A model generated the notes under the pieces. The model was given only the letters and a program-made list of their open reading frames with translations, made no database searches and was not told the DNA's origin. A stretch of DNA of 64,000 nucleotides from contig VYCT01000369.1 in the NCBI GenBank assembly GCA_009843785.1, positions 3,655 to 67,654 on the forward strand. Direction: 5' to 3'. The position numbers and the translations under genes are program-made. This stretch comes from Candidatus Poribacteria bacterium. GTDB taxonomy: Bacteria; Poribacteria; WGA-4E; WGA-3G. Positions 4,868-44,483 of this stretch are shown here, piece by piece. Each line of letters starts with the position of its first letter. Within the stretch, counting starts at the first letter, position 1.

Positions 4868-5004
4868 TTATCAGTTATCGGTTATCAGTTATCGGTTAAA
4901 GAGGGCTACTCTGGCAGTAACAGAAAATGCACCTGACACAACAAACCTCTTAACCGAAGACTGAAGACCGAAAGGTTTTTTCGCAAGAAAAACCGAACCG
5001 ACAA
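4867..5004. repeat. Heptad-periodic inverted-repeat intergenic element (copy i)
   Basis: Left arm GTTATCA GTTATCG GTTATCA GTTATCG GTTAAAG (4867-4901). Right arm CTTAACC GAAGACT GAAGACC GAAAGGT (4949-4976). An AT-rich hairpin GGTTTTTTC-GCAA-GAAAAACC follows, then ACCGACAAC. Confidence 0.8.
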
Positions 5005-5016
5005 CTATTAAAAAAT

Positions 5017-5877: not shown

Positions 5878-5887
5878 GGATTGACCC

Positions 5888-10835: not shown

Positions 10836-10850
10836 AGTTTTCAGAGAAAG

Positions 10851-10992
10851 GGTTTTCGGTCATCCGAGTCCTGGTTTTCGGTTTTCGGTTAAGACATTGT
10901 GTTGGAAACGTTTCCTATTACTGCCACAAGAAACCTCTTTAACCGATTACTGACTACCGAAAGATTTTTTGAAAAAAATCGTACTGATAACC
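10851..10992. repeat. Heptad-periodic inverted-repeat intergenic element (copy ii)
   Basis: GTTTTCG GTTTTCG GTTAAGA (10874-10894) ... TTTAACC GATTACT GACTACC GAAAGAT (10938-10965). An AT palindrome GATTTTTTGAAAAAAATC follows. The element fills the argC-lpxB spacer. Confidence 0.8.
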
Positions 10993-10994
10993 AC

Positions 10995-12041
10995 TCACGG
11001 CATCATCCCCGGTACCTTCAGCCCATCGGTTTCATTGAAACCGAACATCAGGTTGAGATTCTGCACAACAGCACCGGCAGCACCTTTACCGAGGTTATCA
11101 ATCGCTGCCATTGCGACGACGCGGCGGGTCCGCGTATCAACTTCAAGTCCAACATCGCAATAATTACTGCCGAGCACCGCCTTTGTCTCCGGGTATGTAT
11201 TCGACGGAAGCACCCGAACAAACGGTTCATGCTCATAAAAACCTGAATAGATGCCGAGAGTTTCTTCAGTGGACATCTCCTCGGTGAGCCGCATATAGAC
11301 AGTGCTGAGAATCCCCCGCGTCATTGGAACAAGGTGTGGCGTGAACGTCACACGAACCGGGGTTTCCGATGCAACAGCACTTAATTCCTGTTCAATTTCG
11401 GGTGTATGCCGATGCGAACCGATGTTGTAGGCGACAACGTTAGACTCTCGATTCGGGTAATGTGTATTTTCACGCGGTTTCGGACCGGCACCCGAAATGC
11501 CGGATTTGGCATCAACAATGATGGAGTCCAATTCCACGATGCCTTGCGCGACTAACGGCATCGCTGCAAGTATGGCACTCGTCGGGTAACACCCCGGATT
11601 CGCTACAAGTTGGGCATCCCGAATCTTGGCACGATACCGTTCCGGCAACCCATATATCGCTTGCGGCATGAGTTCCGCGCTTGTATGTTCAGCATGGTAC
11701 CACGCTTCGTAGGTTTCGGCATCTCCGAGTCGATAGTCCGCACTGAAATCCACGACGCGCAGCCCTTGTGCCAGAATTTGTGGCACGAACGCCATCGCAA
11801 CTTTGTGCGGAACTGCAAGCACAACGACATCCACTATCTCTTTAAGGGAGTCAAGGTCTAACGGTTCAAATGCGGACGATAGAAACCCGCGGAGGTTCGG
11901 CAGGACACTCTCAATACACTGCCCCGCATAGGTTTCAGAGGTACAAAGCGCGACCTGTAACCCCCCAGAATGGTTAGCGAGAAACCGTAACAACTCACTC
12001 CCGCTATAGCCTGATGCACCAACAATCCCAACTTTTATCAT
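10995..12041 (-). CDS. argC: N-acetyl-gamma-glutamyl-phosphate reductase
   Basis: MIKVGIVGASGYSGSELLRFL Rossmann N-terminus and the active-site block NPGCYPTS. Confidence 0.9.
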   Translation of the reverse strand: MIKVGIVGASGYSGSELLRFLANHSGGLQVALCTSETYAGQCIESVLPNLRGFLSSAFEPLDLDSLKEIVDVVVLAVPHKVAMAFVPQILAQGLRVVDFSADYRLGDAETYEAWYHAEHTSAELMPQAIYGLPERYRAKIRDAQLVANPGCYPTSAILAAMPLVAQGIVELDSIIVDAKSGISGAGPKPRENTHYPNRESNVVAYNIGSHRHTPEIEQELSAVASETPVRVTFTPHLVPMTRGILSTVYMRLTEEMSTEETLGIYSGFYEHEPFVRVLPSNTYPETKAVLGSNYCDVGLEVDTRTRRVVAMAAIDNLGKGAAGAVVQNLNLMFGFNETDGLKVPGMMP

Positions 12042-12273
12042 ATTTTTAATTTACCTTGCGGAGGAACGACATGCGTCCTATCTATCACGTGCCTTTCTTA
12101 AACCCGCCCTCCACTACGTTACGGGCTTGCGTTTTTGCTTATGCCTTACTGCAGAAAACCAACCGCCACGTACCAAGTGTTATAGATTATGCAAGGAATT
12201 GTAGCACATTTCGAGTGGAATGTCAAATTATGATAGAGACATGCCATTGAACGCACGCTATTCAAGAAATAAA

Positions 12274-12302
12274 TTGACAGACCACCGTATACACGTTAAA
12301 AT
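12274..12302 (+). promoter_or_regulatory. Sigma70-type promoter TTGACA-17 nt-TAAAAT
   Basis: TTGACA at 12274-12279, a 17-nt spacer, and TAAAAT at 12297-12302. It lies about 50 nt upstream of ATG 12354. Confidence 0.6.
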
Positions 12303-12353
12303 ATGACATACCTCGGCTTGCAAACTACGCCGGAAAATCAAAAGGAGACTACT

Positions 12354-13100
12354 ATGAAATTTGCACGCTATGAATTAAATGGCACAATCGGCTACGGCAT
12401 TGTCTCAGGAGAAAATCTGAACGTCCTATCGGGATGCCCGTTTGGTGAATATAGCGAAACAGGCGATACCGTCGCATTAGCGGATGTACAACTCCTCGCA
12501 CCGACAACACCAACAAAGGTGTTGGCTGTCGGATTGAATTATCGGAGCCATTTAGATGGAGCACCGGAGCCAGAAAACCCTGAAATCTTCATCAAAACGC
12601 CTTCCTGCATCAACAACCCAGGTGGCAACATTGAATTGCCGAACGGCGATGATGACGTACACGCCGAAGGCGAACTCGTCGTCATTATGAAGAAACAGAC
12701 ACGGAAGGCAACACCTGAAGAAGCAGCCGCCAATATTTTGGGTGTGACCTGCGGCAATGATGTCAGCGCACGTACATGGCAGAGCGATGATATGCAGTGG
12801 TGGCGCGCCAAAGCATCGGATACCTTCGGACCTATCGGTCCCGTTATCGCGACTGATGTTGACTACACGGACGCACAGTTGGAGACCCGCATCAACGGCG
12901 AAGTCGTTCAGAAACAGACAACCGCAGACCTCATTTTCCCTGTAACAACCATTGTCAGTTTCATCTCACAGGCGATAACCCTGGAACCGGGAGATGCGAT
13001 CTTCACCGGTACACCCGGCACGACAACCGCTTTGAAAGCCGGTGATGTCGTCGAAATTGAGATTGAGGGTATTGGCGTTCTACAAAATAACGTCGTATAA
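12354..13100 (+). CDS. Fumarylacetoacetate hydrolase (FAH) family protein
   Basis: FAH-domain blocks KVLAVGLNYRSH, GELVVIM and FTGTPGT...GDVVEIEIEGIG. AGGAG lies 6 nt upstream of ATG 12354. The ORF-track start at 12303 abuts the -10 box and is rejected. Confidence 0.8.
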   Translation: MKFARYELNGTIGYGIVSGENLNVLSGCPFGEYSETGDTVALADVQLLAPTTPTKVLAVGLNYRSHLDGAPEPENPEIFIKTPSCINNPGGNIELPNGDDDVHAEGELVVIMKKQTRKATPEEAAANILGVTCGNDVSARTWQSDDMQWWRAKASDTFGPIGPVIATDVDYTDAQLETRINGEVVQKQTTADLIFPVTTIVSFISQAITLEPGDAIFTGTPGTTTALKAGDVVEIEIEGIGVLQNNVV

Positions 13101-13143
13101 CAGCAATTTCTGCATAGGCGCGCTCGTTTCCGACCAGTGTACT

Positions 13144-13401
13144 TTGATAAAATTTACAATTTCAGAGACTAACGCTATCACTTTCAATGAAGAGGTAACC
13201 GGAAACATCGCACTTCAAACCGAAGATGAGACTGATGTCGGTTGGATCGCAAACGTTGCTGGCACCAAAGGCACGCTTGAGTTTGTCGAAGGTAAAGAAC
13301 TCACCTACGAAACCGTTTATGTCATTGTTGGTAAAGTCTCTACTACCGATGGCACCGAAACTGAGATCAAAATCACCTTTTCAACCAAGGGTGAAGCGTA
13401 A
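13144..13401 (+). CDS. Small hypothetical protein (T/E/G-rich, beta-rich composition); start uncertain (TTG)
   Basis: This is the only open frame in the 370-nt gap. The ORF-track version starts inside the FAH gene. No ATG or clear RBS; a TTG at 13144 is the first possible start after the FAH stop. Confidence 0.25.
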   Translation: MIKFTISETNAITFNEEVTGNIALQTEDETDVGWIANVAGTKGTLEFVEGKELTYETVYVIVGKVSTTDGTETEIKITFSTKGEA

Positions 13402-13467
13402 ATTCAAATCCTGCTTTGACTCATGTTGGCGAGACTCCAAACCTTGCTGCTTCAATAAGGAGGAAAG

Positions 13468-14247
13468 ATGATTTTCACACATCTATCTCTTTTTCAAGAC
13501 AGACGAATTTTTCTGAAGACAAAATTTGCTCTTAAAATTGTTGTGTTCATACTGTGCATCGGTATAGCAACACAAACATCAGCAGAACTGCTGTTCCACG
13601 ACGACTTTGAAAAGGATAAAATCGGGAGCGAGCCAAGCAAATGGGAAGTTGGCCACGACGGCAGCACGACTGCGGAAGTCGTTGCCGATCCGAAAGACGC
13701 AAGCAATAAGGTCCTTAAAACCTCGGACAAGGCATCTAACGCATCACGGCACGATGTCGGTGGGTCCATCTACGTCGCTGGCGACAAAAACTGGGACGAT
13801 TACGTCGCTGAATGGGATATGATGTTTCCCGACGACTTTTACATGGGTGTCGTCTTTCGCTTCCAAGAGGGCGAAAAGTTCTATTTAAGCGACCGGCGGC
13901 AAGGTGGTAGAGAATACCATTTCTATAAACGCCAAGGCGGTTGGGCACAAGTCCAAGCTGGACTGGTGGAAAACGACCCCGAAGTCTGGTATCGTGCGCA
14001 GCTCATTCTTGATGGGGACAAATTTACCTTCAAGTTGAAAGAGCGGAAAGACAAGCGTTCGTTTGACAAAATCGACCCTGCGACCGAAGGTCAAGATGGA
14101 AACTTCAAAACCGGTCAGTTCGGCAACTACGGACTCGTCTATATCGATAATATCTTTGTTGGCGATTCTGTCGAAGACCTCGTTCTACCGGTCGAACCAC
14201 AGGATAAGTTAAGCACGACATGGGGTGCGATTAAGGATGCCTATTAA
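13468..14247 (+). CDS. Secreted concanavalin-A-like (LamG/DUF1080-type) domain protein
   Basis: AAGGAGG RBS and a signal-like N-terminus (FALKIVVFILCIGIATQTSA). FHDDFE...W start and NWDDY...GVVFRF...Y blocks are typical of ConA-like lectin/glucanase folds. The C-terminal tail is VEPQDKLSTTWGAIK. Confidence 0.65.
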   Translation: MIFTHLSLFQDRRIFLKTKFALKIVVFILCIGIATQTSAELLFHDDFEKDKIGSEPSKWEVGHDGSTTAEVVADPKDASNKVLKTSDKASNASRHDVGGSIYVAGDKNWDDYVAEWDMMFPDDFYMGVVFRFQEGEKFYLSDRRQGGREYHFYKRQGGWAQVQAGLVENDPEVWYRAQLILDGDKFTFKLKERKDKRSFDKIDPATEGQDGNFKTGQFGNYGLVYIDNIFVGDSVEDLVLPVEPQDKLSTTWGAIKDAY

Positions 14248-14257
14248 AGAAAAAGAT

Positions 14258-14315
14258 TGGAAGGATGGAACGGTGGAAGGATAGGTCCCCAACCTTCCAC
14301 CGTTCCATGCTTCCA
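14258..14315 (+). terminator. Long GC-rich hairpin downstream of 13468-14247
   Basis: TGGAAGGATGGAACGGTGGAAGG (14258-14280) pairs with CCTTCCACCGTTCCATGCTTCCA (14293-14315). That is 23 bp with one mismatch and a 12-nt loop. No U-tract follows. Confidence 0.5.
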
Positions 14316-14349
14316 CTTATTCGTACTGAACCGCAAGGAAAATTAAAAA

Positions 14350-15639
14350 ATGGCGACCTATACTGCCCGCGGTGGCAAAGACACCGTCATCACATCCGAC
14401 GAAAAACGCGCACTGCTACACGAAGCACTCCTCAAATTGGGCGGCATCCCGAAAAAGATTTTGGTCATCCCGCCGGATATAACACGCCTCCACTCGAACG
14501 CTGGCGAACTCACCCAAATTCTCTACGAGTTATGGGACACCGCAAACGGCACCACCTTTGATATATTGCCCGCTATCGGCACACATGCGCCGATGACCAA
14601 AGCACAGATTGCTGAAATGTACGGTGATCTATCCAAGGCGACATATCACGTCCACAACTGGCGGACCGGGTTATACCACTTCGGCGAAGTGCCATCTGAA
14701 CTCGTGCAAGAGGTTTCGGGCGGCAAGCTTGATTATAGCATACCTGTTGCCGTAAACCGCCGTATTGTAGGGGCTGGGTTACCCAGCCCCTACGAACTCA
14801 TCATCTCGGTCGGACAGGTAATCCCACACGAGGTTATCGGTATCGCCAACGGATTTAAAAACATCCTCGTCGGTGCAGGCGGGGTTGAGATGATTAACAA
14901 ATCGCACTTCCTCGGTGCCGTAGACGGCATGGAACGCCTGATGGGACGCACCGATACCTCTGTCAGGAGAGTCCTAAATTACGCGCATGCAAACTACCTA
15001 AAACAACTCGGTATTTTATATGTCATGAGCGTCATGGATGCCGATGCCTCTGGAGAACGCGTGATGCGCGGGCTTTACGTCGGCGATGATGCACAGACCT
15101 TTGAAACCGCTGCGGAATTGAGCAGAGCCGTTAATATGACGTTCTTGGACGCTCCTCTATCAAAAGTAGTCGTTTATTTGGATCCGCGGGAGTTTAAAAG
15201 CACATGGCTCGGTAACAAGGCGATCTATCGCACCCGGATGGCAATGGCGGACGACGGTGAGTTGATTATCATCGCTCCCGGACTCCGAGAGTTCGGTGAG
15301 GACGCAGAAATCGATCGTCTCATCCGAAAATACGGCTATCGGGGCACACCTGCGACCCTCAACGCTGTCTCGGAGAACCCGGAGTTGCAAGAGAACCTCT
15401 CCGCCGCTGCACACCTGATTCACGGCAGCACCGAAGGACGTTTCAAGGTTGTCTATGCGACGGAACACCTCACCCAAACCGAAATCGAATCGGTCGGCTA
15501 CCAATGGGCTCCCCTCAACGAAGTGATTGCCGAATACAACCCCGAAACGCTTACCGATGGCTTCAACGACCGTGGCTTCTTCTACATCAGCGAACCCGGA
15601 CAAGGGTTGTGGGCACTCCGCTCTCAGTTCAGTGAGTAA
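14350..15639 (+). CDS. LarA-like (DUF2088, nickel-dependent lactate racemase family) protein
   Basis: Size about 430 aa. The N-terminal pattern KILVIPPDITRLHS ... AIGTHAPM ... VGQVIPHEVIG recalls the LarA N-terminal domain. Confidence 0.6.
   Translation: MATYTARGGKDTVITSDEKRALLHEALLKLGGIPKKILVIPPDITRLHSNAGELTQILYELWDTANGTTFDILPAIGTHAPMTKAQIAEMYGDLSKATYHVHNWRTGLYHFGEVPSELVQEVSGGKLDYSIPVAVNRRIVGAGLPSPYELIISVGQVIPHEVIGIANGFKNILVGAGGVEMINKSHFLGAVDGMERLMGRTDTSVRRVLNYAHANYLKQLGILYVMSVMDADASGERVMRGLYVGDDAQTFETAAELSRAVNMTFLDAPLSKVVVYLDPREFKSTWLGNKAIYRTRMAMADDGELIIIAPGLREFGEDAEIDRLIRKYGYRGTPATLNAVSENPELQENLSAAAHLIHGSTEGRFKVVYATEHLTQTEIESVGYQWAPLNEVIAEYNPETLTDGFNDRGFFYISEPGQGLWALRSQFSE
14767..14793. 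repeat. Second copy of the 27-bp palindrome GTAGGGGCTGGGTTACCCAGCCCCTAC, inside the LarA-like gene
   Basis: Identical 27/27 to 10061-10087. Codon-aligned here and translated VGAGLPSPY. Confidence 0.9.
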
Positions 15640-32166: not shown

Positions 32167-33323
32167 TCAAAGATCACTCTCCCACATAACTTCCGTGACA
32201 ACATCAGCTGTCTTAGTGCTAAATAGTGTAAGACCACCCCAATCCGACACGGCTTCATCTGGATCTTCAGCATCTAAGGTTGAAATGTCTTTGACACCCA
32301 TAACACTCTCCTGACGAGAGAAATAATAGGTTTTGAAAGTTTTTTCATTCAAGATTGTTTCCGAGAGGTTTTTGGAATAGACATTTGCATTCAAATCCAA
32401 CAACTGTCTTAACCGTGCCGGAGCAGTTTTTGATTTAGCAATAAGTCGAATCGCCCAGATAAGTTCTAAGATTTGGGATGAATGCGTAGAAACGATAATT
32501 TTGTAGCCCCGCCGCAAGAGGTCAAAAAGAATAATGAACAAAACCGAAATGGATTGCGGGTGTAATCCCATTTCTGGTTCTTCAATTACAACCCAATTGA
32601 GATTATTTTTTTTCGCGCGCCACCTGAAGGCATTGATTGATACAAGCCCATCAAAAGCGGCACAAATTCTCGCTGCCCCGTGGACCAGGTCATAAAAGGG
32701 AGATGACTACCTGCAACGTCCAAAACGATACGTTTTCGCAAACCGGAACGGTCGAGCTTAACTTGAGCCCCGCCAAAGATATTTTCTCCAATTGTATCTC
32801 GTATGATTTTATTCATACGGCCGGCCTGTGGAAAAATGATGTCCTCACTGGAACCTGAACTCATTTCCAATAGTAAACGCAAATGCTCACTGAATTGCTT
32901 AACAACGTACGGGTCGCCGATAGCGTAGTCAGTAAACGCTCGAGGCCAGCCATCTTTGAGCGTCATCGCCCGATGGGCAGGTATCAGGAACAAGGATTCC
33001 GCTTTTCTCTTTTCTTTTTTCGTTAACACCTCCTCAAGTTCAAATATTTCGTTGTCCACAGTGATTTTTGTTGCTGCGGTGCTCCAAATCTTTTCCATCC
33101 CCTCACCGAAATAGAGGGATAAAAAATGCTCGGTTTTTCCGTGCCAATCAAAGCCGTGCTTCTTAAGAGTCCGAGTAATATCATTTCTATCTAAAATTAA
33201 CTTCACAAGTTGGAGCAGAATGCTTTTCCCACTCGCTTGCTCACCGACAAATACTGTTAAATCGCCAAAGGAAATATCGGCTTCACGAATTTGCCCCAAT
33301 GAAGTTAGTTCAATACGTTCCAT
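32167..33323 (-). pseudogene. ABC/SMC-like AAA ATPase (AAA_15/21-type) split by a frameshift in an A8 run
   Basis: The N-terminal ORF carries Walker A FVGEQASGKS. The C-terminal ORF carries VVIEEPEMGLHP (Walker B/D-loop) and IIVSTHS. The two frames meet at the T8 run 32606-32613, and one extra A would fuse them as ...GGARKKNNLNWVVIEEPEMGLHP. Confidence 0.75.
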
Positions 33324-35294: not shown

Positions 35295-36533
35295 TTAGTT
35301 TCCATCTTCTGCACTCGGAGATGCTACACCAACAAGTGCGCGTCCGGTCCTTTCCTCAGCACGGAATACAGCGAGGTTATATCCGTTCACGTCTTTGATG
35401 AGCCAGATATGCCCCGCAAACGTGTGCTGATTCACAAAGGTATCAACAGCAACCTTACCATAGTACTTTTCTTCACCGTTACCATCTACCCAATAATAGG
35501 CGATCTCGGTTTCCTTGCCGCCATTCACGAAAATGATTGCGGTTTCGGTGTCGCTGCCTCCTGATCTGAGATTTGGCAGCAGACTCGGATCGTGCTGCTT
35601 TAAGTCTATCCACTTGCCACCGCCATCGCTCTCTGGGTTCTTCAATTGTTGGTGGAATTCTGTCAACTCTATTAACTCGGCAGGCCATTCAAACTTCGGG
35701 GAATCCTCAGGATCGAACCCTTGGAGATGTGAAAGCCTTAAACGTGTCACCGCTCGCGTATATCGCCAGTCCATATCGCCATAAACTTCAGTGAGCAGTG
35801 CTGCAAGCGCGGGGTCGTATTCTTTTAATTTGTCGCGGGTATCAACATGGTTATGTTGGTCGTCGTTTGCCCGGTTCGTGTCAAACCAAGACTGCGTACC
35901 TTCAGCCCAATATTCTGCTCTGTTCGTAATGGCATAGGTATCTTTCCACAACCCTTTTTCAACTGCAGCATCATATAGTACCTTAAGACGGTCATCAAAA
36001 CTCGGATCCACTGTCTTTAATCCCATCTGGTGAATCGCATGCGCGAATTCATGCACCAGAATATTTTCAGTCGAATACGGATCGCCTTCGTAATTAAGCA
36101 AGTTCTCCTCACCACAACTGACAGCGGGTCGGGATGGCGTGGAACCCAAACCGCGTGCGCGCCGGTCCCAATAGTAATCGGGTTGCAGATCGCTGTGTTC
36201 GGGAATCTGCGTCGTCAGTTCGTTATGTGCCATCACAGCAAAACGCACGTTATTTTGTGCGAGTGCCTGTAGTATATCCTGCCGATGCCCGATCATCTGC
36301 TGAATAAGCCAAGCCGCTTCCTTCAGCGCATAAGGACTCACCTTCGCTGATGCGACAACAGGCAACCCCTCCACATCAAGCGACTGCACATAAAACGGAT
36401 CCAAGTTAAAAGTTTCGCGAACATCATTCGGCGGAGGTATAGGTTGAGAAATATTGACGCTTTGCGCTGTTGCAGTTAGTTGAATGGAAAAAAACAGGAC
36501 GTAGATTGTTAAAATGGCAGTCAAATAAAGCAT
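35295..36533 (-). CDS. Secreted HExxH zinc metallopeptidase-like protein with a C-terminal VHL-beta-like domain
   Basis: Signal-like N-terminus and HEFAHAIH. The C-terminal IIFVNGGKETEIAYYWVDGNGEEKYYGKVAVDTFVNQHTFAGHIWLIKD parallels human VHL [48 protein letters not shown] (recalled from memory). Confidence 0.6.
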   Translation of the reverse strand: MLYLTAILTIYVLFFSIQLTATAQSVNISQPIPPPNDVRETFNLDPFYVQSLDVEGLPVVASAKVSPYALKEAAWLIQQMIGHRQDILQALAQNNVRFAVMAHNELTTQIPEHSDLQPDYYWDRRARGLGSTPSRPAVSCGEENLLNYEGDPYSTENILVHEFAHAIHQMGLKTVDPSFDDRLKVLYDAAVEKGLWKDTYAITNRAEYWAEGTQSWFDTNRANDDQHNHVDTRDKLKEYDPALAALLTEVYGDMDWRYTRAVTRLRLSHLQGFDPEDSPKFEWPAELIELTEFHQQLKNPESDGGGKWIDLKQHDPSLLPNLRSGGSDTETAIIFVNGGKETEIAYYWVDGNGEEKYYGKVAVDTFVNQHTFAGHIWLIKDVNGYNLAVFRAEERTGRALVGVASPSAEDGN

Positions 36534-36594
36534 AAGTCAGTCTTCCTTTGGTATTAAGGACTATGTTAAAGTTGAGAGCACATTTGAAAACGTT

Positions 36595-37572
36595 TTATTT
36601 TGATTCTCGAAATAGAAGTAACTGAACAGATTGCTGATCAATTGGATCTAAAGGGTCTTCCTTTTCTGAGATATAGGTGTTAATGCAACGTGCAATATAC
36701 TCTGCCTGTTTCACTGGTACAGCATTCCCAATCATCTGCTCCAAATCGGTTTTCGATCCAGTGAAACAAAAGTCTTTTGGAAAGGTTTGGAGATAACTTC
36801 GTTCTAATGTTGTGAGTGGACGCACTTTTTCTGAAATAAGTGCAGTGTCCTTCGGATGCGCCTTGTATGTTTTTGGAATTGGGCGATTAACGCCTCTTAC
36901 TGTTGGACTCGGTTCATCAATGCTAAAGACAGCGCGGCGGCTATAGTTGCGAGGATGTCGGTAGTAGTGGGCAACGTCAAGACTATCCCCCAAGTAATCA
37001 CGCACTGTCATCGGTTTGGTAATCAGATTGTTATCCAAATAACTCGCGAGAGATCTGCTATCCACAGAGATAGATAGCCCTAATTCACCTATAAGAAAAA
37101 GCCGTTTCCGTCTTTGTGGAACACCACACTGGTTTGCGTCTAAAATTCGCTGTGTTAGTGAATATCCTGCACCTCTTAAAATTTCACCAGCACTACGATA
37201 TCGCTGACTTTTCACAGTTCTATCCACATTTTCCATGACAAACCACTTTGGTTTTGTATGTGCGACAATCTGTGCGAAACTCACAGTCAAATCCGCTCTA
37301 CCTAAATTTTCGTCCCGTTTACCGGCATGCGAAAAATCTTGGCACGGCGGTCCACCAATAATCATATCAAATTGATATGCGTTTAATATTCCTAAACTTT
37401 CTTGCCAATTACCGAGATCTAACTTGTGTATATCATGCGTAAAGTTAGCACGATAAACCTTGATTGCCGGTTCCCAATTATCGAAAGCAGCTACTGCTTC
37501 AAAGCCCGCATTTTGGAATCCGAGTGTCATGCCACCACATCCAGCAAAAAGATCTATAAACTTCATAGACAT
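36595..37572 (-). CDS. dcm: DNA (cytosine-5)-methyltransferase
   Basis: Motif I FIDLFAGCGGMTLGF, motif IV GGPPCQDFS, motif VI ENV, QRRKRLF, and C-terminal GNAVPV. Confidence 0.9.
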   Translation of the reverse strand: MSMKFIDLFAGCGGMTLGFQNAGFEAVAAFDNWEPAIKVYRANFTHDIHKLDLGNWQESLGILNAYQFDMIIGGPPCQDFSHAGKRDENLGRADLTVSFAQIVAHTKPKWFVMENVDRTVKSQRYRSAGEILRGAGYSLTQRILDANQCGVPQRRKRLFLIGELGLSISVDSRSLASYLDNNLITKPMTVRDYLGDSLDVAHYYRHPRNYSRRAVFSIDEPSPTVRGVNRPIPKTYKAHPKDTALISEKVRPLTTLERSYLQTFPKDFCFTGSKTDLEQMIGNAVPVKQAEYIARCINTYISEKEDPLDPIDQQSVQLLLFRESK

Positions 37573-37587
37573 TTGTGTTTTTACCTC

Positions 37588-38688
37588 TTACATGAAAAGT
37601 TCAGGAGAATTAGCCAGAATAGCATCAAATCGTCTTTCTGGACTAAGCATCTTTTCGCCCTGCCCTAAGATAATGTTTTTGATTTCAGTTTTCTTGATTC
37701 TTGGATGTGTGAGTTCTACACAAGACATATAAGGATGAGTCTTTCTTCCACTCAAGGCAAAGGCTTTGTCCGTTTGTCTCGTAAATCCGACACTAACGGT
37801 CTGCGGGTCAATTTTCTCGTCTGTGGCAAAGTCAGAAAGCATTTTCACGATCCACAAAACTGCCCGTTTTGCTCGTGAGAATCCGCGAGTACGTCCTTGT
37901 TCAACTGCATCTAAAAGCAGCTTCGCAAAAGCGAACGTACTCCAGACAAAAACATCCAAACAATTTTCATGAAGTTGAGCAGATTTCCCAACAGTCTTCC
38001 AAATAGGTTGTATAACCAATGGAATCTGATCGTCTATTTTCCCAAGTAACAGAATCTTGATAGTTTGAATAATATGCGGTATCTTCTCCAGCATGCTATC
38101 TTCTGATTCCCAGTCGAAGTTATTCTGAAAGATCGGGCGTAGAGCCTCAGAAAGTTCGTTTTGACGTTCAGCGTACCGCTTAGCAATTTCAAGTGTTAAA
38201 TGGATAATCGTATTCGGACGCACCACAAGTTCACAGCCGTATCCTTCTTCAGGAAAGTTGTAAGTTGAATTATCAGGCAAAGCTGTCAATTTAATCTCCA
38301 ATGCTCGTAGCCAAGGATTTTCAGAATCAGAATTATCCATTACCACTAAATCAATACGAGGTAAAGTTCCTTTGACAAATTGCTGATTTTGTCCATAAGT
38401 ATACTCAAAAGCAAAGTAAATATCTTCAGAATCATACGCATGTCCAAATATAGAGTTCACGTCAATCTTCTCAGGAACGATATTCCAATTCTGATCTAAC
38501 GCCAAGTAAACAGGCGCGATATTTTGACTTTGCATATAACATAATAAGGCGATTGGGAAACAGTTATTAAAGCTGTTTTTGCCCCACGCTTTTGCTTCAC
38601 TGAAGTCCTTGTTTGTGTTAGATGGATTTAACCCAAACAAGGCAGGTCTGTTACCTATTGATGTGAATTTCATCGGATTGGTTACCAT
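37588..38688 (-). CDS. Putative type II restriction endonuclease (PD-(D/E)XK)
   Basis: RIDLVVMD ... ALEIKLTALPD gives a D...ExK signature. It lies 15 nt upstream of the C5 methyltransferase in the same operon. Specificity and family could not be assigned by eye. Confidence 0.55.
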   Translation of the reverse strand: MVTNPMKFTSIGNRPALFGLNPSNTNKDFSEAKAWGKNSFNNCFPIALLCYMQSQNIAPVYLALDQNWNIVPEKIDVNSIFGHAYDSEDIYFAFEYTYGQNQQFVKGTLPRIDLVVMDNSDSENPWLRALEIKLTALPDNSTYNFPEEGYGCELVVRPNTIIHLTLEIAKRYAERQNELSEALRPIFQNNFDWESEDSMLEKIPHIIQTIKILLLGKIDDQIPLVIQPIWKTVGKSAQLHENCLDVFVWSTFAFAKLLLDAVEQGRTRGFSRAKRAVLWIVKMLSDFATDEKIDPQTVSVGFTRQTDKAFALSGRKTHPYMSCVELTHPRIKKTEIKNIILGQGEKMLSPERRFDAILANSPELFM

Positions 38689-38703
38689 TCCTCCAATAGA
38701 ACG

Positions 38704-41700
38704 CTAGACAGGTATTCCATGTGCCGTTATCTCTGAAAGCGGAACCTGATATCTGACATCCTCCATTGGGCTTACCTTATCTGTGGGATTCTGAATGATA
38801 TAGAGTTCTGGTTGCGTTGCGGCGTTAAGGACAATATAAAGAAAATAGTCATCTTTGAGTTCCTGCGCTACGGACCACTCGTTGGATGTGAGGAGGACAG
38901 GATCACGGTAGGCACGGGCTTTTACCTCAATATATCGATTTTTACCATCCGGTGCTGTTGAATGAAGATCGTAACCAAGGTTTTTTGTGGAGACATCTTT
39001 GACAGTACGCTCTCGCTCCTCTTCATACTCGCGAGCATGTTTCATACCGATGTGTTCAATTTCCTTTCTGTCATGCGGAGATGTACTTGTCTCCACCATG
39101 TGTGTATCATCCTCCGTGCCACCACTGCGACCACTACTATGACTGGTGTCTCGATTTCTATTAGGTGTATTGATCCCTTTGCCACCACGCGAGCGTGTTC
39201 TACTTCCACCCGGATGTGATTGACTCGTTGAGGTTTCAAATTCATTCTCCGTTGAATCGTTGTTTTCACTTCCAGTTTCTGGCTCCTCGTGAATTGTTGG
39301 CGTTCCAACATCAGAGTCATTCGGTCTTAAGTCGTCCTCGCTACCAGTCTCACATGAGCATTTCTCATCAACAGATTCTGACGCATTCTCTTCATCTTCT
39401 TTAGAATCTGACTCTGGAGGTAACAGACAGCAATTAGGTTGGAAACCTCTGCGTTTCCAACTCAATAGAGCAGTATTAGACAGATTTACTGCCGATAATA
39501 GATCCTTGACAAACTCGCGGAGTTGGTCAATACGAAAATAATCTTGTAGGGCATCGCCGATTAGATCTGGGTACGCTTTCTCGTCCTCTTCTAATCCTAA
39601 CCAGAGCGTTTGATTCCTCTCATCCAAAAAACTCTGACGCGGGTTTGGATCGGGAGCACGAAATTCTCTCAGTGTGTATTCCACCTCTAATTTTTCGGTT
39701 CGGCAAACTGACATTCGATCCAAAATTTCAGCAGATTTTTTCACTTCGTGCCCTTGGCACAGACGCTGTGAATGGAGGAAATCATGAATGTATGGACGCA
39801 GATTTCGCACCTTTTCAGATAAAATTCTATCTTCTCTTTGCTCACCGGAACAGTTAAATTCAACATCTGATGCTTCACAGCAACCCTCTATCCTTAAATG
39901 CTGCTTCGCAAACTCTAACAAATCACCATCAAACGACCAAAATGGAATGTGTTCCTCCATAAAAAGTCGAGAACGATAATCATCGTCCTTCCAAACCAAT
40001 TCACGCAAACAGAAAAAGTCCCATTTATCTCCCTCTTCGCCAAGCCAACATTTATCTTTAAGCACTTGTCCCCACTCTTTCCACCAATCTTCATTTACCA
40101 GAAAACTTCCGCCTTCTCGCAGTGCCTGCCATAAACGATGGTAAAGGATCTTAACACGTTCACGAACATTCACGTCCTCAGTTTTCCCTACAGATGCAAT
40201 CTTTTGAATGACGCGGACGTAATGTGACGGTGCGGCACCCTCCAAAACCCCCAATCCGATGAAAAACCCTTTCAACGTTTCCTCGTAATCATCTATGAGG
40301 TAACCGCAATGGTTACCAAAGACTGGGCTCTCATCCTTCCAAAACACTTCATGTGCTTTCCACCAATTCGGTTCTGGATTGGAAGTAAAGATAAGTGGTT
40401 TTTGCTTGAATTCCTCGCTTCGACGTGCATCTTGACGCGCAAGAAAACGATAGAGTGGTTCAACCTTTTCAACACTAACTTCCGTGCCACTCAAGGTTTG
40501 AAGATAGTTGAGTACACTATCCGTATTTGCATTCAGATGTATTCCCAATTTCTCAGCCAACCATCGTGCAGCTTCGTTGTCTTGGCTGATATCAAAATCA
40601 GGATGTAGGTAAGCGACACTTTCACCTAACACTCTACGATTCCCATCAGTTGGGGCAAAGCACTTGGAAGGCGTATGAAGCTTGCCGTGTTCATCGGGAA
40701 TCCATGCCGTTTCCTTGAGTTGACAATAGAATGTAGCATCAAAGAGTTTTGATTGATTCTTGCGAAAGTACCAACGATAAATACCTCGAAAGTGGTTATC
40801 AAAGAAAGTTTGGCGGTTCCATTCTCCCGACGGGAGAGGCTTAACCCTTTTAACTAATAGGTGCCAAAGGACATGCGAAAGATTTATTTTTTTATGGTCA
40901 CTAATCTCAACTAACGCCTCCGACAAACCAGGGAAATTGAAGTCTTTAATATTAGTTTGCAGCCCCCACGTAGTTCGTTCCAGTTCAACATTTCGTTTAC
41001 TAAGTTCTTTGTTAAATGCTTGATCGTTTTCGGATTTGGCAGAGATGTTCTTTTCGATAACACACGGAATATCCATAGCCCCAATCGCTTTCAAAAACTG
41101 AAGCCAATCTCTCCGATTGGAATCATTTTCCAGATAGGTATCATCCACAAACCAAATGTCGCTATTGGATACCGAAAAATAGGTTTCCAAATCCGCATTA
41201 CCTGTGTAGGCCTTTGGTAAGTAAATATCACAAGGTTTTACAAAATCATAGGTTTCTGGTTGACGGCTGTTATAAGCCAGCAGGATTGAAACCTTGCTGA
41301 GCTCTTCCCTCAATTGCCTATGCTCATTTCCCGAAAGTTCATTCCAAACTCTGAAAATGTAACGTACATGCAAACGGTTTTGTTCTTTAGAAGGTTTGTC
41401 AGACCAACGATATTGCCGGATAATCCATTTGCTAATCATTTCTTCAGAGTTTGAAATCCTAACGTCCAGCTTCCCGAGGAAAGCTTTGATGTCGTTCCCT
41501 TCTTCTCCTTTAAGAAGAATCGACTGAAGAATAGGTAAATCCATGAGAAACGGTTTGAGATCTTCACGCCCTTCATCGGTATCCGGCGGGAAGAACACCA
41601 ATTTATAATTTGTAGACACATGCCGCCCATTTTCAAGGCGAACCAATGGTAGTCTTTTGATACGACCCAATTCAGAGTTCTGACTATTTAAATAGACATA

Positions 41701-43155
41701 CAAAAAACGCAGCCATTCTTCGCATCTACTCTCAAACCAGTTATTGTCTTGCTTTTCCAGCCAACCCAACACTTGGCTGATCCCTATTTCTCTCACCCCT
41801 GCCTCACGCATTACCTTAAAGCACCGACGAAACTCTTCCGTTTCTCCTATTTCAGGATGTAACCAACCGCTGTTCGGATACAACCAACGACTTTCAACCA
41901 ATTCTCGCAAGGACTCACGGTGTGGATAAAATACGTTCTCAGCTTTTGCATACCCACCGTCTTGTGTTGGTACAAAAACTCTTTCTTGCATTGCTTTTTG
42001 TAATGCGTCAGCAATAGGTTTAAACTCATTTTCCACTTCGCCTTTCAGAGGTAATATATTGAAAAATGCTGGTTCAAGTAAATCGTTTACCTTCAACTGT
42101 TCCAAAATTTTAGGGAGAAATTTAGCCGTTTCCTGCACTAACCATTTATTCCATGGATTTTCACTTGGATCTTGGATATCCGCACGTCCTGATGTTGTCT
42201 GATACCGTGCCTGAATGAGGAATTTCAGGTGTGTCTCTTTCTGCGTAGGAAGATAAGCGAATAGGACAGAGTTATCATCCATTGCTGTGATACTACCGTC
42301 ATGCAGTTTGAACGCGATTTCAATTGGTTGTTGTTTTTTCGCTGATTGCTGAATTTTCTGTCGTTTTTCGTCATGTTTAGTCTGTTTTAAAAGCGCATCA
42401 ATCACATTTTCTGGTGGTTGAACCGCCTTGTGGAAAACGAGGAACATCTCTGATAATTGATTTTCACCATTCAGGGACATTGTCAACTCAACTTCAGACG
42501 CGTCCTGAATCTTACTATGAGGATGATGGATACAAGAACAAATTCCAGTTCGACCCTCACGCTCATCAATCCATCTAATTGTTTTGAAGTCTTTTTTGAA
42601 ATCTCGTTGGAGATCACGTAGGAATAACAAAACATACCTCTCACCTAATTTGCAGAACTGATCTTTCAAGAGCACGATGTCTTCCTGGCTCAGATCATCT
42701 TTAAAAGGCAGGCGGAAGACTGTTCGACCTTGGCTAACTTGTTCTACAATTTGCGGTGTTGTCTTATCAATGCCTTCAGGCTGCGTAAGATCTCGGATAC
42801 GAAAATGTTCATCGTCAGAGTATATTTCTGGGCAATCTGTGTAGTTGTAAACCGACTTGAAACCGATGCCAAAAGTCCCAATTTGCGTTAAGTCTTTACT
42901 ACTTGAACCTAATGAACAGATGCTACGTACATCTTTTTCGCTGAACTGATCCCCATCGTTCCAAACGAATAGTTCATTCTCTCCTAATCGCAGTTCCAAT
43001 TGAGAACTTTTGCTGTCAACAGCGTTCTGGATAAACTCATAGACGAAATGCGTTTTTTCTTTGTAAAGTTGTTCATAGAAGAAGCGACGGTACTCTGGAT
43101 CTGAGCCGTAGCGCACTTGGTTTTCTTCAGCTATCTTTTTGTAATCTGTTGCCAT
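38704..43155 (-). CDS. NO VEIN/sacsin-like GHKL ATPase with C-terminal DUF3883 (NOV_C, restriction-endonuclease-like) domain, 1483 aa
   Basis: N-terminal Bergerat-fold motifs FVYEFIQNAVDS, WNDGDQFSEKD and IGTFGIGFKSVY. C-terminal GMKHAREYEEE...GYDLHS...RYIEVKA...LTSNEW....DYFLYIV is typical of DUF3883. An acidic/Ser-rich linker lies at 39067-39420. Confidence 0.75.
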   Translation of the reverse strand: MATDYKKIAEENQVRYGSDPEYRRFFYEQLYKEKTHFVYEFIQNAVDSKSSQLELRLGENELFVWNDGDQFSEKDVRSICSLGSSSKDLTQIGTFGIGFKSVYNYTDCPEIYSDDEHFRIRDLTQPEGIDKTTPQIVEQVSQGRTVFRLPFKDDLSQEDIVLLKDQFCKLGERYVLLFLRDLQRDFKKDFKTIRWIDEREGRTGICSCIHHPHSKIQDASEVELTMSLNGENQLSEMFLVFHKAVQPPENVIDALLKQTKHDEKRQKIQQSAKKQQPIEIAFKLHDGSITAMDDNSVLFAYLPTQKETHLKFLIQARYQTTSGRADIQDPSENPWNKWLVQETAKFLPKILEQLKVNDLLEPAFFNILPLKGEVENEFKPIADALQKAMQERVFVPTQDGGYAKAENVFYPHRESLRELVESRWLYPNSGWLHPEIGETEEFRRCFKVMREAGVREIGISQVLGWLEKQDNNWFESRCEEWLRFLYVYLNSQNSELGRIKRLPLVRLENGRHVSTNYKLVFFPPDTDEGREDLKPFLMDLPILQSILLKGEEGNDIKAFLGKLDVRISNSEEMISKWIIRQYRWSDKPSKEQNRLHVRYIFRVWNELSGNEHRQLREELSKVSILLAYNSRQPETYDFVKPCDIYLPKAYTGNADLETYFSVSNSDIWFVDDTYLENDSNRRDWLQFLKAIGAMDIPCVIEKNISAKSENDQAFNKELSKRNVELERTTWGLQTNIKDFNFPGLSEALVEISDHKKINLSHVLWHLLVKRVKPLPSGEWNRQTFFDNHFRGIYRWYFRKNQSKLFDATFYCQLKETAWIPDEHGKLHTPSKCFAPTDGNRRVLGESVAYLHPDFDISQDNEAARWLAEKLGIHLNANTDSVLNYLQTLSGTEVSVEKVEPLYRFLARQDARRSEEFKQKPLIFTSNPEPNWWKAHEVFWKDESPVFGNHCGYLIDDYEETLKGFFIGLGVLEGAAPSHYVRVIQKIASVGKTEDVNVRERVKILYHRLWQALREGGSFLVNEDWWKEWGQVLKDKCWLGEEGDKWDFFCLRELVWKDDDYRSRLFMEEHIPFWSFDGDLLEFAKQHLRIEGCCEASDVEFNCSGEQREDRILSEKVRNLRPYIHDFLHSQRLCQGHEVKKSAEILDRMSVCRTEKLEVEYTLREFRAPDPNPRQSFLDERNQTLWLGLEEDEKAYPDLIGDALQDYFRIDQLREFVKDLLSAVNLSNTALLSWKRRGFQPNCCLLPPESDSKEDEENASESVDEKCSCETGSEDDLRPNDSDVGTPTIHEEPETGSENNDSTENEFETSTSQSHPGGSRTRSRGGKGINTPNRNRDTSHSSGRSGGTEDDTHMVETSTSPHDRKEIEHIGMKHAREYEEERERTVKDVSTKNLGYDLHSTAPDGKNRYIEVKARAYRDPVLLTSNEWSVAQELKDDYFLYIVLNAATQPELYIIQNPTDKVSPMEDVRYQVPLSEITAHGIPV

Positions 43156-43207
43156 AATTTGTTTCCTTATAGAATCTGGTTGAAACTTCAGCTAACACCT
43201 TTTACAT

Positions 43208-43423
43208 TCACCGACTCATTGAACGGGAATCAAAACGCATCGGAATTTCTCCTTCTTTAATTGCGTTTAGCAATGCCTCCGCGTCCTCCAGAGTTACATC
43301 ATGTGATTTGTTAATAGCTGCTAAGATCCGCTTGGGTTGGCCTTTTCGTTTAAGTTTGGACAAATCCTGCAGGTTCCCTAAATTTTCTGTTGGAATTTCT
43401 GATTTCCAGACGAGATATTCCAA
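43208..43423 (-). CDS. Small hypothetical protein (71 aa, TTG start), possibly a decayed antitoxin-like gene
   Basis: An open frame with only a TTG start. An ATG-initiated 35-codon ORF in another frame overlaps its 5' end, which suggests decay. Confidence 0.25.
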   Translation of the reverse strand: MEYLVWKSEIPTENLGNLQDLSKLKRKGQPKRILAAINKSHDVTLEDAEALLNAIKEGEIPMRFDSRSMSR

Positions 43424-43784
43424 AGTAACGCTTCAATTCTTCGATCCCAGAAGTAGATAATTTCTCGATGGTATTCAGTATCCATTTTTCCTGTAACTGA
43501 CACGGTTTTTCTCCTTCTTCGCAATGCGGAGATGCTGCTTGCCAATAAACGGATCGCGCAACCCTCTCAGCAAATCTACTATAAGAGCTTATCAGAATTT
43601 ACGACCCGCGTCAAACGCTTCTGCGTTTTCACAAGGCTATTTCCTATCCGGCAAGCACTACGTCCTTTCCTGATACTTCAGTTCTTGCCAGATGGCGCGC
43701 ATCTGCCACACATCCATTAAAACGACCTTTGCCTTCTCACCAATTCGGAGTTCTTCCTATGTATCTGCCATATCAGGTTATCCG

Positions 43785-44483
43785 TTACTTAGAAATTTCT
43801 TTGTAAGTCTTTGATTTTGCGTGGCGGGACTTATTTCTCAGACTCCATACGCTGCCAACAAAATTGCTGTCAATCAGTTGTTGAAAAATTTGATGGCGCG
43901 CGGACGGTTTGAGTTCAAACTGATCTGTTTCCGGTGAAAATGGATAAAGGTCGGCTTCACCCGCCAGCAGAAGAAAATATTTACCGCGGTTATCCGGAAG
44001 GAAAATAGGGCCTTTCCATTCCAAATATTCAACTACCGGTGGTGTCCCCGGGATAGACATTCTCGCGTGGAGGAGAACCTCTGTCCTGTCCTGTAGTTTG
44101 ATAGAAGCAGGGAGTTTGTTTTCGAGTCGGATGTCACCGTGAAAATATGGGGTCCGAAAGAACATCCGCGCCGAGAAAGCCAAAAACTTGGATGAATTAA
44201 ATGCGTACGGCAGATAGTATCCGTCCAAACTCATCTCGTCTTCATTAAGGCAAATCCCAATGGCAATACCAAACTCCCTAAACTTGAATCCCCTCCACTT
44301 CGCATCTATCGCGCTGAGTCGGAGAACCGCCCTACCCGCTTCCTTGTATGGGAGGAGATTCTCCTTGCGCAATACGGCTTCCCAGAACGATAAGTCCGCT
44401 GTGCCGTGAAGGGTTACCTCTTTGACATTATAAAGATCTGCGGCGTATTCGACAGGGGTGTTTGCAGCTGCATTGTTAGGCAT
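43785..44483 (-). CDS. Hypothetical protein (233 aa)
   Basis: ATG 44483 gives an 8-nt overlap with the GH32 stop. The longer ORF-track version overlaps GH32 by 270 nt with an Arg/Cys-rich, non-protein-like N-terminus. Confidence 0.55.
   Translation of the reverse strand: MPNNAAANTPVEYAADLYNVKEVTLHGTADLSFWEAVLRKENLLPYKEAGRAVLRLSAIDAKWRGFKFREFGIAIGICLNEDEMSLDGYYLPYAFNSSKFLAFSARMFFRTPYFHGDIRLENKLPASIKLQDRTEVLLHARMSIPGTPPVVEYLEWKGPIFLPDNRGKYFLLLAGEADLYPFSPETDQFELKPSARHQIFQQLIDSNFVGSVWSLRNKSRHAKSKTYKEISK

Follow-up and report, generated by a model that had tools for sequence, protein, structure and literature searches.

Tiamat is a single-gene anti-phage system with models in PADLOC and DefenseFinder, credited in the review passages that mention it to Millman et al. 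2022, and is also found in defence islands and hotspots of Pseudomonas (PMC12629846). Searches of the phage defence literature for Tiamat, TmtA, DUF3883 or sacsin returned no mechanistic studies. A separate, well-defined kind of defence is the type II restriction-modification (R-M) family of BsaHI, HgiDI and HgiGI (site GRCGYC), which includes the putative HindVP. The family motifs WGKNxF, (Q/K)(T/N)DKAF(A/S) and SPERRFD were defined for active BsaHI; HindVP, in which ExK is absent, was inactive in that study (PMC2413257).

We analyzed a 64,000-nucleotide stretch of DNA (the window) from a Candidatus Poribacteria chromosome. We think it probable that the locus described here consists of two separate, known kinds of defence, a single-gene Tiamat and a BsaHI-type R-M pair, side by side in a variable hotspot. 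The arrangement would be one of layered, additive defence and not one machine. The locus holds little that is new in kind and follows the usual pattern of a defence island.

Other described systems share parts of this layout. BREX, DISARM and MADS combine methyltransferase, ATPase and nuclease components, as the earlier note on this DNA had proposed for the locus. However, their conserved multi-gene cores travel together, whereas the components here separate freely, and PADLOC matched none of the BREX, DISARM or MADS core genes at the locus, generic methyltransferase similarity aside. Sacsin, plant NO VEIN and SMCHD1 have a homologous GHKL ATPase module, and NO VEIN also has NOV_C. These are eukaryotic chaperone, developmental and chromatin proteins, and the likeness points to common ancestry of the ATPase and nuclease fold and says nothing about shared function. 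Iyer, Abhiman and Aravind reportedly described, in 2008, prokaryotic GHKL ATPases of the MORC/paraMORC type that lie within R-M-like operons, an analogy on which the earlier note drew. There, as here, a GHKL ATPase adjoins genes for restriction and modification in a conflict locus. In contrast to those proteins, the ATPase in the window is sacsin/Hsp90-like and carries its own nuclease, and its linkage to R-M is confined to one syntenic site.

Layout and base composition of the locus

We found three packed genes on the minus strand (Table 1): tmtA (T), the restriction endonuclease gene (R) and the methyltransferase gene (M). In the ORF list the T-R and R-M spacers are 15 nt each, and a 71-aa ORF on the same strand lies 52 nt upstream of T. 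All of these coordinates are exactly as described in the earlier note. A gene caller run on the source contig places the start of R five codons downstream, giving a T-R spacer of 30 nt. Neither the T-R nor the R-M spacer contained a terminator-like site. The promoter and terminator scan was judged against shuffled sequence; its overall counts were no higher than those of the shuffled sequence, and it is informative solely on the absence of terminator-like sites in the spacers. Because the spacers are 15 nt and no terminator-like site separates the genes, tmtA, R and M are likely co-transcribed in this genome.

Table 1. Features of the tmtA-R-M locus (positions in the window).
Feature	Position	Strand	Basis
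Cognate C5 cytosine DNA methyltransferase (M), 325 aa	36595..37572	-	PF00145 1e-68
Type II restriction endonuclease (R), BsaHI/HgiDI/HindVP family, 366 aa, predicted site GRCGYC	37588..38688	-	PF09519
tmtA (Tiamat), 1483 aa	38704..43155	-	GHKL ATPase, long middle region, acidic linker, NOV_C nuclease domain; intact ORF
TmtA C-terminal NOV_C (DUF3883) PD-(D/E)XK nuclease domain, residues 1366-1454	38794..39060	-	Pfam PF13020 5e-23
TmtA acidic/Ser/Gly-rich low-complexity linker, about residues 1240-1350	39106..39438	-	Read from sequence
TmtA N-terminal sacsin/Hsp90-type GHKL (Bergerat) ATPase, about residues 28-300	42256..43074	-	Profile and fold matches
Frameshifted remnant of ~98-aa gene (71-aa ORF 43208-43423 is its 3' part)	43208..43490	-	tblastn

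The locus is poor in G+C (41.9% across 36595-43423 vs 49.0% in the rest of the 64-kb window), and it is the lowest-GC 6.8-kb stretch of the 64 kb (sliding mean 0.480, sd 0.021). A low-GC island had been proposed earlier from spot counts of single lines. We recomputed these counts (0.367, 0.517 and 0.550) and obtained the same values; the island is real, but the spot counts overstate the contrast. Horizontal acquisition, which had been read from the low G+C, is plausible. Recent arrival does not hold up: since R and M match the flanking core genes in conservation across species, any acquisition would be old. An enterobacterial island was excluded, as megablast of positions 36000-44000 against complete E. 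coli genomes gave no matches.

The 1483-aa protein is a Tiamat

We found that the 1483-aa protein is a Tiamat, with intact ATPase and nuclease motifs. The assignment is based on a near-full-length match to the PADLOC TmtA model PDLC03972 (2.3e-128; residues 28-1461 against profile positions 35-1288 of 1302). Seven more TmtA models in PADLOC matched as well (2e-91 to 7e-31), and there were 1363 homologues at E<=1e-10. The NOV-like GHKL-DUF3883 protein, a form on which the earlier note was aware of no experimental work, is therefore Tiamat and does not belong to an uncharacterised class. The architecture given there, a GHKL ATPase with a C-terminal endonuclease-fold domain, was borne out by Pfam matches to NOV_C (Table 1) and SACS (5.5e-15).

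Further matches of the N-terminus were to the NCBIfam sacsin N-terminal ATP-binding domain (1.1e-23), to the sacsin SR1 structures 5V44-5V47 in a profile comparison (E 3.5e-9) and, weakly, to HATPase_c_3. Foldseek matched it to Hsp90, GRP94, TRAP1, sacsin and SMCHD1 (E about 5e-6); the query was a low-confidence AF2 model of residues 1-1200 (pLDDT 62.5, pTM 0.40), of which the N-terminal GHKL matches alone were used. TmtA of the window has the Bergerat residues E40, N44, D47, D67, G68, G93, G96 and G98, which do not vary among 31 relatives. In the NOV_C domain, D1396 and E1410-V-K1412 are invariant, within GYD...IEVKAR. Some relatives carry a NucS-type domain instead, and their identity to the window protein collapses past about residue 1300. 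The linker is the boundary at which C-terminal domains are swapped.

TmtA shares with Tiamat its size, an Hsp90/sacsin-type ATPase and a C-terminal PD-(D/E)XK nuclease, and its relatives likewise occur alone at many sites and in defence hotspots. It differs in belonging to a Poribacteria-specific, highly mosaic clade in which NOV_C and NucS domains are exchanged, and in being probably co-transcribed, in this genome, with an R-M pair. The Tiamat tested by Millman and colleagues in 2022 is said to have come from another phylum.

We found that T has diverged far more than its neighbours. The median identity of T to the window was 54%, compared with 85.5% (R), 89% (M) and 93% (GH32 and GFO). TmtA is a segmental recombination mosaic (43–81% identity) with NOV_C/NucS swaps of the C-terminal domain, and IS elements or split ORFs often disrupt it. 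With divergence rates this different and T a mosaic, the three genes do not evolve together as a unit. TmtA changes through recombination of segments and exchange of its nuclease domain while its neighbours remain constant, and this marks the parts of the protein that are likely to be sensor and effector.

R and M form a BsaHI-type R-M pair

By its motifs, the R-M pair is of the BsaHI/HgiDI type and has every motif of the active enzymes. R matched PF09519 (RE_HindVP) over its full length (1.4e-126, positions 1-332 of 332) and PADLOC REase_II (5.6e-120). It contains WGKNSF35, PRID110, E131-I-K133, QTDKAFA305 and SPERRFD349, and P110-R-I-D113 and E131-I-K133 are invariant across 26 homologues. 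R thus has the motifs of BsaHI, HgiDI and HgiGI along with a C5 methyltransferase partner and depletion of GRCGYC, and it keeps the catalytic ExK that HindVP is without (PMC2413257). Members of the homologue list from Bacillaceae and cyanobacteria are ~50% identical to R. Scanning metagenome contigs with R gave 347 pattern matches, of which 0 were confirmed.

The AF2 model of R was confident (pLDDT 88.4, pTM 0.90) and places the PRID and EIK motifs in consecutive beta-strands (112-118 and 126-132). Foldseek of this model against the PDB gave no match at E<1; NotI appeared at E 2.7. The predicted nuclease fold of R rests on the motifs and on the placement of these strands. The earlier description of the 366-aa protein as nuclease-like understates a full-length match to a restriction enzyme family.

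M matched PADLOC MTase_II (PDLC03270, 7.5e-147). [quoted passage not shown] In the TRD, a residue R lies 11 residues ahead of the TV motif, and position -9 is V, not G/A; the TL-motif specificity rule (PMC2413257) fits this spacing partly. The label "Dcm" given to M earlier is correct in that M is a C5 methyltransferase, but M is not a Dcm orthologue (NF007772, 42 bits vs a cut-off of 710). M was downstream of R in every R-anchored context, these contexts being taken from contigs that encode R homologues. The type II R-M pair recognized in the earlier note was confirmed by the PF09519 and PF00145 matches of the two adjacent genes.

The R-M-bearing clade avoids GRCGYC

We found that GRCGYC is depleted in the window, with 8 sites observed and 42.5 expected (ratio 0.19; control ratios 0.76-0.87). 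The ratio was 0.03-0.23 in the clade carrying the R-M pair. A more distant Poribacteria clade that lacks the pair had a ratio of 0.66, and outside the phylum it was 0.85. The depletion tracks the R-M-bearing clade, and this clade-specific, five-fold depletion is a clear genomic trace of a restriction enzyme that has long been resident. GRCGYC specificity of R and M is predicted from family membership and from the avoidance of the site.

T, R and M separate at a variable hotspot

The locus occupies a variable defence hotspot in the Candidatus Poribacteria chromosome, flanked by a GH32 gene on one side and NUDIX/GFO genes on the other. The order T-R-M was present at this site in nine other genomes (L003-6, L013, L019, L020, L032 and L047). 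In these 10 genomes the order is fixed and the spacing tight (15-30 nt or overlap). Where R followed TmtA, the TmtA was always of the NOV_C type and never of the NucS type. Eleven hotspot loci had T only (L007, L009, L018, L021, L022, L025, L028, L034, L041, L048 and L050), and those of L048 and L050 have an intact, NOV_C-type TmtA. Complete Poribacteria chromosomes with T only at this site include OZ242310.1 and OY761015.1. Four had T and M without R (L008, L017, L023 and L030); in these genomes, which have lost R, M is intact and lies 9-12 nt downstream of TmtA. In L056, L057 and L058, R-M had no T upstream of it, and in L016 the pair adjoins a 158-aa remnant of T.

Elsewhere the genes were found apart. 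R-M alone was present outside the hotspot in L052 and in Niallia circulans L054. No M adjoined TmtA at 19 or more Poribacteria loci, nor in any other phylum sampled. Among the 79 proteins flanking TmtA in 20 non-hotspot loci there were no DNA methylase or restriction families, and no partner gene of TmtA was conserved across these 20 loci. T-R-M is confined to one syntenic site in one Poribacteria clade, and the cases are therefore inherited and not independent recurrences.

The earlier note had proposed a tight coupling of the three genes and had named occurrence of the large gene away from R-M as evidence against it. TmtA stood without R-M in 11 hotspot instances and in 20 loci elsewhere. 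The coupling is thus not conserved: the hotspot has loci with T alone, with R-M alone and with T-M, and the linkage is absent elsewhere. Some functional interplay of TmtA with R-M, or at least shared transcription, may nevertheless exist, because the order is fixed, the spacing is tight, R is limited to NOV_C-type TmtA and M is kept after loss of R.

Alternative explanations and proposed function

The linkage results bear directly on the idea of an integrated three-gene system, in which TmtA would be an ATP-dependent, methylation-gated effector, the m5C made by M would mark self and R would be a second nuclease. The order and spacing shared by 10 genomes, the presence of R only behind NOV_C-type TmtA and the persistence of intact M straight after TmtA in four genomes without R are what such a system would lead one to expect. 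However, all of the T-R-M cases are from one syntenic site in one clade, intact NOV_C-type TmtA is found without R-M, at least 19 Poribacteria loci and all other phyla sampled have TmtA with no M beside it, R-M is found without TmtA, and T has not evolved in step with R and M. The literature, in the passages that mention Tiamat, also treats it as a single-gene system. We consider an integrated system quite unlikely. A more specific proposal is that, in this clade of Poribacteria, Tiamat is wired functionally to the GRCGYC m5C methyltransferase. "NOV_C plus R" and "NucS" would then be alternative effector cassettes swapped between the TmtA linker and the M leader, and M would be kept after loss of R since its mark spares host DNA from TmtA. 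We hold this to be very unlikely; if M did gate TmtA, it would provide a self/non-self rule and a first mechanistic handle on Tiamat.

Addiction behaviour is well established for type II R-M systems. The R-M pair could be mainly a selfish addiction module, whose post-segregational killing stabilises hotspot cargo including tmtA, so that the adjacency reflects stabilisation or hitch-hiking. R and M have stayed as similar across species as core genes do while the cargo around them changes, and the strong clade-wide avoidance of GRCGYC indicates long-term restriction pressure on the host genome itself, both as this explanation predicts. Addiction would not be absolute, however, because R was cleanly lost at least 4 times with M surviving, and both were lost in many genomes. 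It is also compatible with a defence role, and as the main explanation we regard it as unlikely. The likeness of TmtA to the SMCHD1 and Hsp90 ATPase modules in Foldseek, and its relatives with a NucS-type domain, a mismatch-repair nuclease family, might instead suggest a chromosome-maintenance or DNA-repair factor, with a GHKL clamp and a NucS/NOV-type repair nuclease, that lies beside R-M by chance. We find this extremely improbable, given the full-length match to defence-system HMMs and the location in a variable hotspot, with R-M, remnants of toxin-antitoxin genes and a decayed PDC-M56 candidate system as its neighbours. Rapid mosaic diversification and repeated inactivation by IS elements or split ORFs are also those of a dispensable immune gene, not of housekeeping repair.

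We therefore favor two separate defences. The modules sit head-to-tail between the GH32 and NUDIX/GFO genes. In TmtA, ATP binding would cause the N-terminus to dimerise or clamp, by analogy with other GHKL proteins; the middle region, which evolves fast, may sense a phage cue, and the nuclease domain would then cut DNA. M would be expected from its family to methylate host DNA at the inner cytosine of GRCGYC, and R to cut incoming unmethylated DNA at GRCGYC. The defence role suggested in the earlier note agrees with the TmtA HMM match and the R-M pair in a variable defence hotspot, and is predicted from sequence. The GH32 to NUDIX/GFO hotspot is hereby documented in an uncultured phylum that includes sponge symbionts, and its cargo combinations are a natural experiment.

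Neighbouring genes

The gene p412 is present with the locus in most genomes and missing from some hotspot variants. Its product has a signal-like N-terminus, a HEFAH zinc-peptidase motif and a VHL-beta-like domain, and it had no defence HMM match in PADLOC. Based on the zinc-peptidase features, the lack of a defence HMM match and its absence from some variants, p412 is unlikely to be a component of the system.

The 71-aa ORF was ruled out as a regulator of the operon: it is part of a frameshifted remnant, the intact homologues of which are partnered by a PIN toxin gene. In tblastn with the L004 and L050 homologues, the gene was split into two frames at about 43422. In L050 and L051, a homologue of the 98-aa gene is followed by a PIN gene (PF01850, 3.5e-14); a match to DUF2281 was weak and below the cut-off. 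The ~98-aa gene is probably the antitoxin-like member of a VapBC-type pair and lies outside the Tiamat and R-M modules. The neighbours at the hotspot include the decayed PDC-M56 candidate system and remnants of toxin-antitoxin genes.

Identity of the three proteins

We found that the locus is a Tiamat gene and a BsaHI-type restriction-modification (R-M) pair in a defence hotspot, both of known kinds. The features described in the earlier note were confirmed, and its interpretation was borne out in part. PADLOC TmtA model PDLC03972 matched the 1483-aa protein nearly end to end (2.3e-128, residues 28-1461), and this match decisively identifies the protein, by sequence, as TmtA, which by itself makes up the Tiamat defence system. 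In reviews as recent as 2026, Tiamat appears with the systems of Millman et al. 2022 and its mechanism is given as unknown; one survey places it with single-gene PD-(D/E)XK systems. TmtA matched Pfam NOV_C (residues 1366-1454, 5e-23), the Pfam sacsin ATPase domain and the NCBIfam sacsin N-terminal ATP-binding domain (1.1e-23). A profile built from 18 homologues matched the sacsin SR1 ATPase domain of known structure (5V44-5V47, E 3.5e-9). The N-terminal domain of an AF2 model covering residues 1-1200, of low overall confidence (pLDDT 62.5), matched ATPase modules of Hsp90, GRP94, TRAP1, sacsin and SMCHD1 (E ~5e-6). The window protein keeps every Bergerat-fold residue (E40, N44, D47, D67, G68, G93, G96, G98) as well as the three nuclease residues D1396, E1410 and K1412; all of them are invariant among relatives.

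The 366-aa protein, R, is a full-length member of PF09519 (RE_HindVP; Pfam, 1.4e-126) with all the family motifs. Experimental work on this family (PMC2413257) found that BsaHI, HgiDI and HgiGI cleave GRCGYC and that activity requires SPERRFD; it put forward E130-V-K132 as the catalytic motif and found HindVP, which has no ExK, to be inactive. R carries WGKNSF, P-R-I-D113, E131-I-K133, QTDKAFA and SPERRFD, invariant in 26 homologues. In its AF2 model, which was confident (pLDDT 88.4), the strand bearing D113 is followed directly by the one bearing ExK. A Foldseek comparison of this model with the PDB gave nothing significant, so it is the motifs that argue for a nuclease fold. M, labelled Dcm in the earlier note, indeed belongs to the C5 methyltransferases and has every canonical motif, but by NCBIfam comparison it is not a Dcm orthologue. 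Catalytic motifs are intact in all three proteins.

Gene layout and base composition

The three minus-strand genes are packed as previously described, with 15 nt between TmtA and R and 15 nt between R and M. A scan of these tight spacers found no terminator-like site, and a Shine-Dalgarno-like GAGG lies ~10 nt 5' of M. The spot counts behind the claim of low G+C (0.367, 0.517, 0.550) were reproduced exactly, but they overstate the difference, which is 41.9% over 36595-43423 compared with 49.0% in the remainder of the window. Among 6.8-kb stretches this one still has the lowest G+C in the 64 kb, and GC3 was 0.33-0.39 in TmtA, R and M compared with 0.50-0.57 in flanking genes (e.g., GH32, sulfatase).

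Features of the locus and of other genes in the window
Feature	Size	Position	Strand	Remarks
Cyclase-AAA_16-TPR protein	1242 aa	1139-4867	plus	adenylate/guanylate cyclase; PADLOC PycC-like match via cyclase domain
ORF	847 aa	5888-8431	plus	weak DDE transposase domain
PDC-M56A		32170-33323	minus	PADLOC candidate-system AAA_15/AAA_21 ATPase; frameshift near 32610
p412	412 aa	35295-36533	minus	just downstream of M
M	325 aa	36595-37572	minus	ORF list
R	366 aa	37588-38688	minus	ORF list
TmtA	1483 aa	38704-43155	minus	ORF list
ORF	71 aa	43208-43423		52 nt upstream of TmtA; ORF list
Frameshifted gene	~98 aa	43208-43490	minus	
N6_N4 DNA methyltransferase	323 aa	60986-61957	minus	PF01555, 2.4e-46; PADLOC MTase_II, 3.8e-125

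Linkage of TmtA and the R-M pair

The source of the window is a metagenome scaffold, and nearly all of its relatives are MAGs of Candidatus Poribacteria. We compared gene-order maps of 59 loci (handles such as L003 refer to these). There is a single chromosomal hotspot of variable cargo, which lies between GH32, accompanied by a 232-aa gene, and NUDIX/GFO_IDH. TmtA-R-M was present there in nine other genomes. Eleven carried TmtA alone, and in two of these, L048 and L050, it was an intact NOV_C-type TmtA. The hotspot also held R-M without upstream TmtA (L056, L057, L058), R-M next to a TmtA remnant of 158 aa (L016), an arrangement lacking R in which M comes straight after TmtA (L008, L017, L023, L030) and two TmtA paralogues (L003). 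At 20 loci from other Poribacteria sites and other phyla, none of the 79 TmtA-flanking proteins belonged to a DNA methylase or restriction family. R-M pairs of the family found here stand alone at another site in L052 and in Niallia circulans (L054), the latter on an element bearing integrase/resolvase. Based on this survey, all TmtA-R-M cases represent a single arrangement, inherited at a single site. Conserved linkage did not hold: the large gene adjoins unrelated genes elsewhere, the outcome that the earlier note had named as refuting its proposal.

The genes also differ in rate, measured as median protein identity to the window protein across hotspot loci: 54% for TmtA, 85.5% for R and 89% for M, with 93% for GH32 and GFO, 81% for p412 and 77% for NUDIX. 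By these figures R and M behave like vertically inherited core genes of the clade, despite their low G+C. TmtA identity in 100-residue bins ranged from 13% to 96% within single relatives. L003 carries a NOV_C-type copy before R-M-p412 (1943-6535) and a NucS-type copy after it (10001-14395). Against window TmtA, the second copy showed 88-96% identity in residues 1-400 and 700-1300, 62-67% in residues 401-700, and an unrelated NucS-type C-terminus. Window TmtA was 81% identical to this copy compared with 51% to the first, which occupies the equivalent slot. This indicates exchange between the two slots. The C-terminal domain of close homologues is either NOV_C or NucS_C. In four relatives (L012, L027, L028, L030) transposase genes of the IS4/5, IS3 and other DDE types break up TmtA, and it lies in two ORFs in four others (L025, L026, L032, L033), although some splits could be assembly errors. 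Mosaic diversification, effector-domain exchange and frequent decay are to be expected of a free-standing immune gene but not of one whose product is a subunit tied to R and M.

The four loci with M and no R might instead indicate a functional link between TmtA and M. In these, 9-12 nt separate the end of a NucS-type TmtA from M, which is intact, keeps all motifs and is 88-95% identical to window M. However, many TmtA genes have no adjacent M, and we consider such a link very improbable; on the ordinary reading, M is an orphan methyltransferase remaining after loss of R. The leader ACACAAATG is common to the TmtA-M and R-M junctions, so that "NOV_C domain + R" and "NucS domain" look like alternative cassettes, apparently swapped between the TmtA linker and the M leader. 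We conclude that TmtA and R-M are probably two independent modules. Judging from its family, M would methylate GRCGYC at its inner C, like M.BsaHI (PMC2413257), and R would cleave unmethylated GRCGYC sites. TmtA may act through ATP-driven GHKL dimerisation, with its variable middle region as a putative sensor and its C-terminal nuclease predicted to cleave DNA.

Restriction footprint in host DNA

GRCGYC is depleted in the window: a maximal-order Markov model predicts 42.5 occurrences and 8 were observed, a ratio of 0.19. For three controls, words from the same class of composition, the ratios were 0.76-0.87. The ratio was 0.17 in TmtA-R-M loci, 0.03 in R-M-only loci, 0.23 in TmtA-M loci, and 0.21 in closely related TmtA-only loci. 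It rose to 0.66 in a Poribacteria clade that is more distant and lacks this R-M, and to 0.85 outside the phylum. Depletion thus tracks the clade carrying this R-M. This is independent, if indirect, evidence of long-standing activity of a GRCGYC-specific nuclease in this lineage.

GGCC was also strongly depleted in the window (44 observed compared with 174 expected, ratio 0.25), with ratios of 0.26-0.38 in all Poribacteria loci and 0.63 outside the phylum (L003-L059). This points to pressure from a HaeIII-like restriction activity encoded somewhere in these genomes; the window itself yielded no R-M of that kind.

Neighbouring genes

The 71-aa ORF is present as reported, but is the 3' part of the frameshifted gene. 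Intact homologues (97-101 aa, weak DUF2281 match) precede a 138-aa PIN-domain gene in L050, L051, L006, L007 and L028, suggesting a VapBC-like toxin-antitoxin pair. The ORF is therefore probably an antitoxin remnant; the window contains no PIN gene. Downstream, the PDC-M56A locus is a decayed candidate defence system, and the ~153-aa partner present in relatives had no match in the window. p412 looks like a secreted zinc metallopeptidase: its N-terminus is signal-like, the zinc-peptidase motif HEFAH lies at residue 161, and there is a VHL-beta-like domain (a homologue matched PF01847 at 1.7e-9). It occurs in most hotspot genomes, on either side of TmtA, and did not match defence models. No tRNA was found in the window.

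The N6_N4 methyltransferase lies between GH95 glycosidase and GNAT acetyltransferase genes; it appears to be an orphan, since no restriction gene is evident beside it. Distant GHKL relatives (~1,000-1,200 aa, 26-29% identity over the N-terminal part) occur in L036 (Pseudomonadales), L042 (Methanocorpusculum) and L044 (Crenothrix). Each is preceded by a large SNF2-family helicase gene (1,015-1,206 aa), and the two probably form a different two-gene system.
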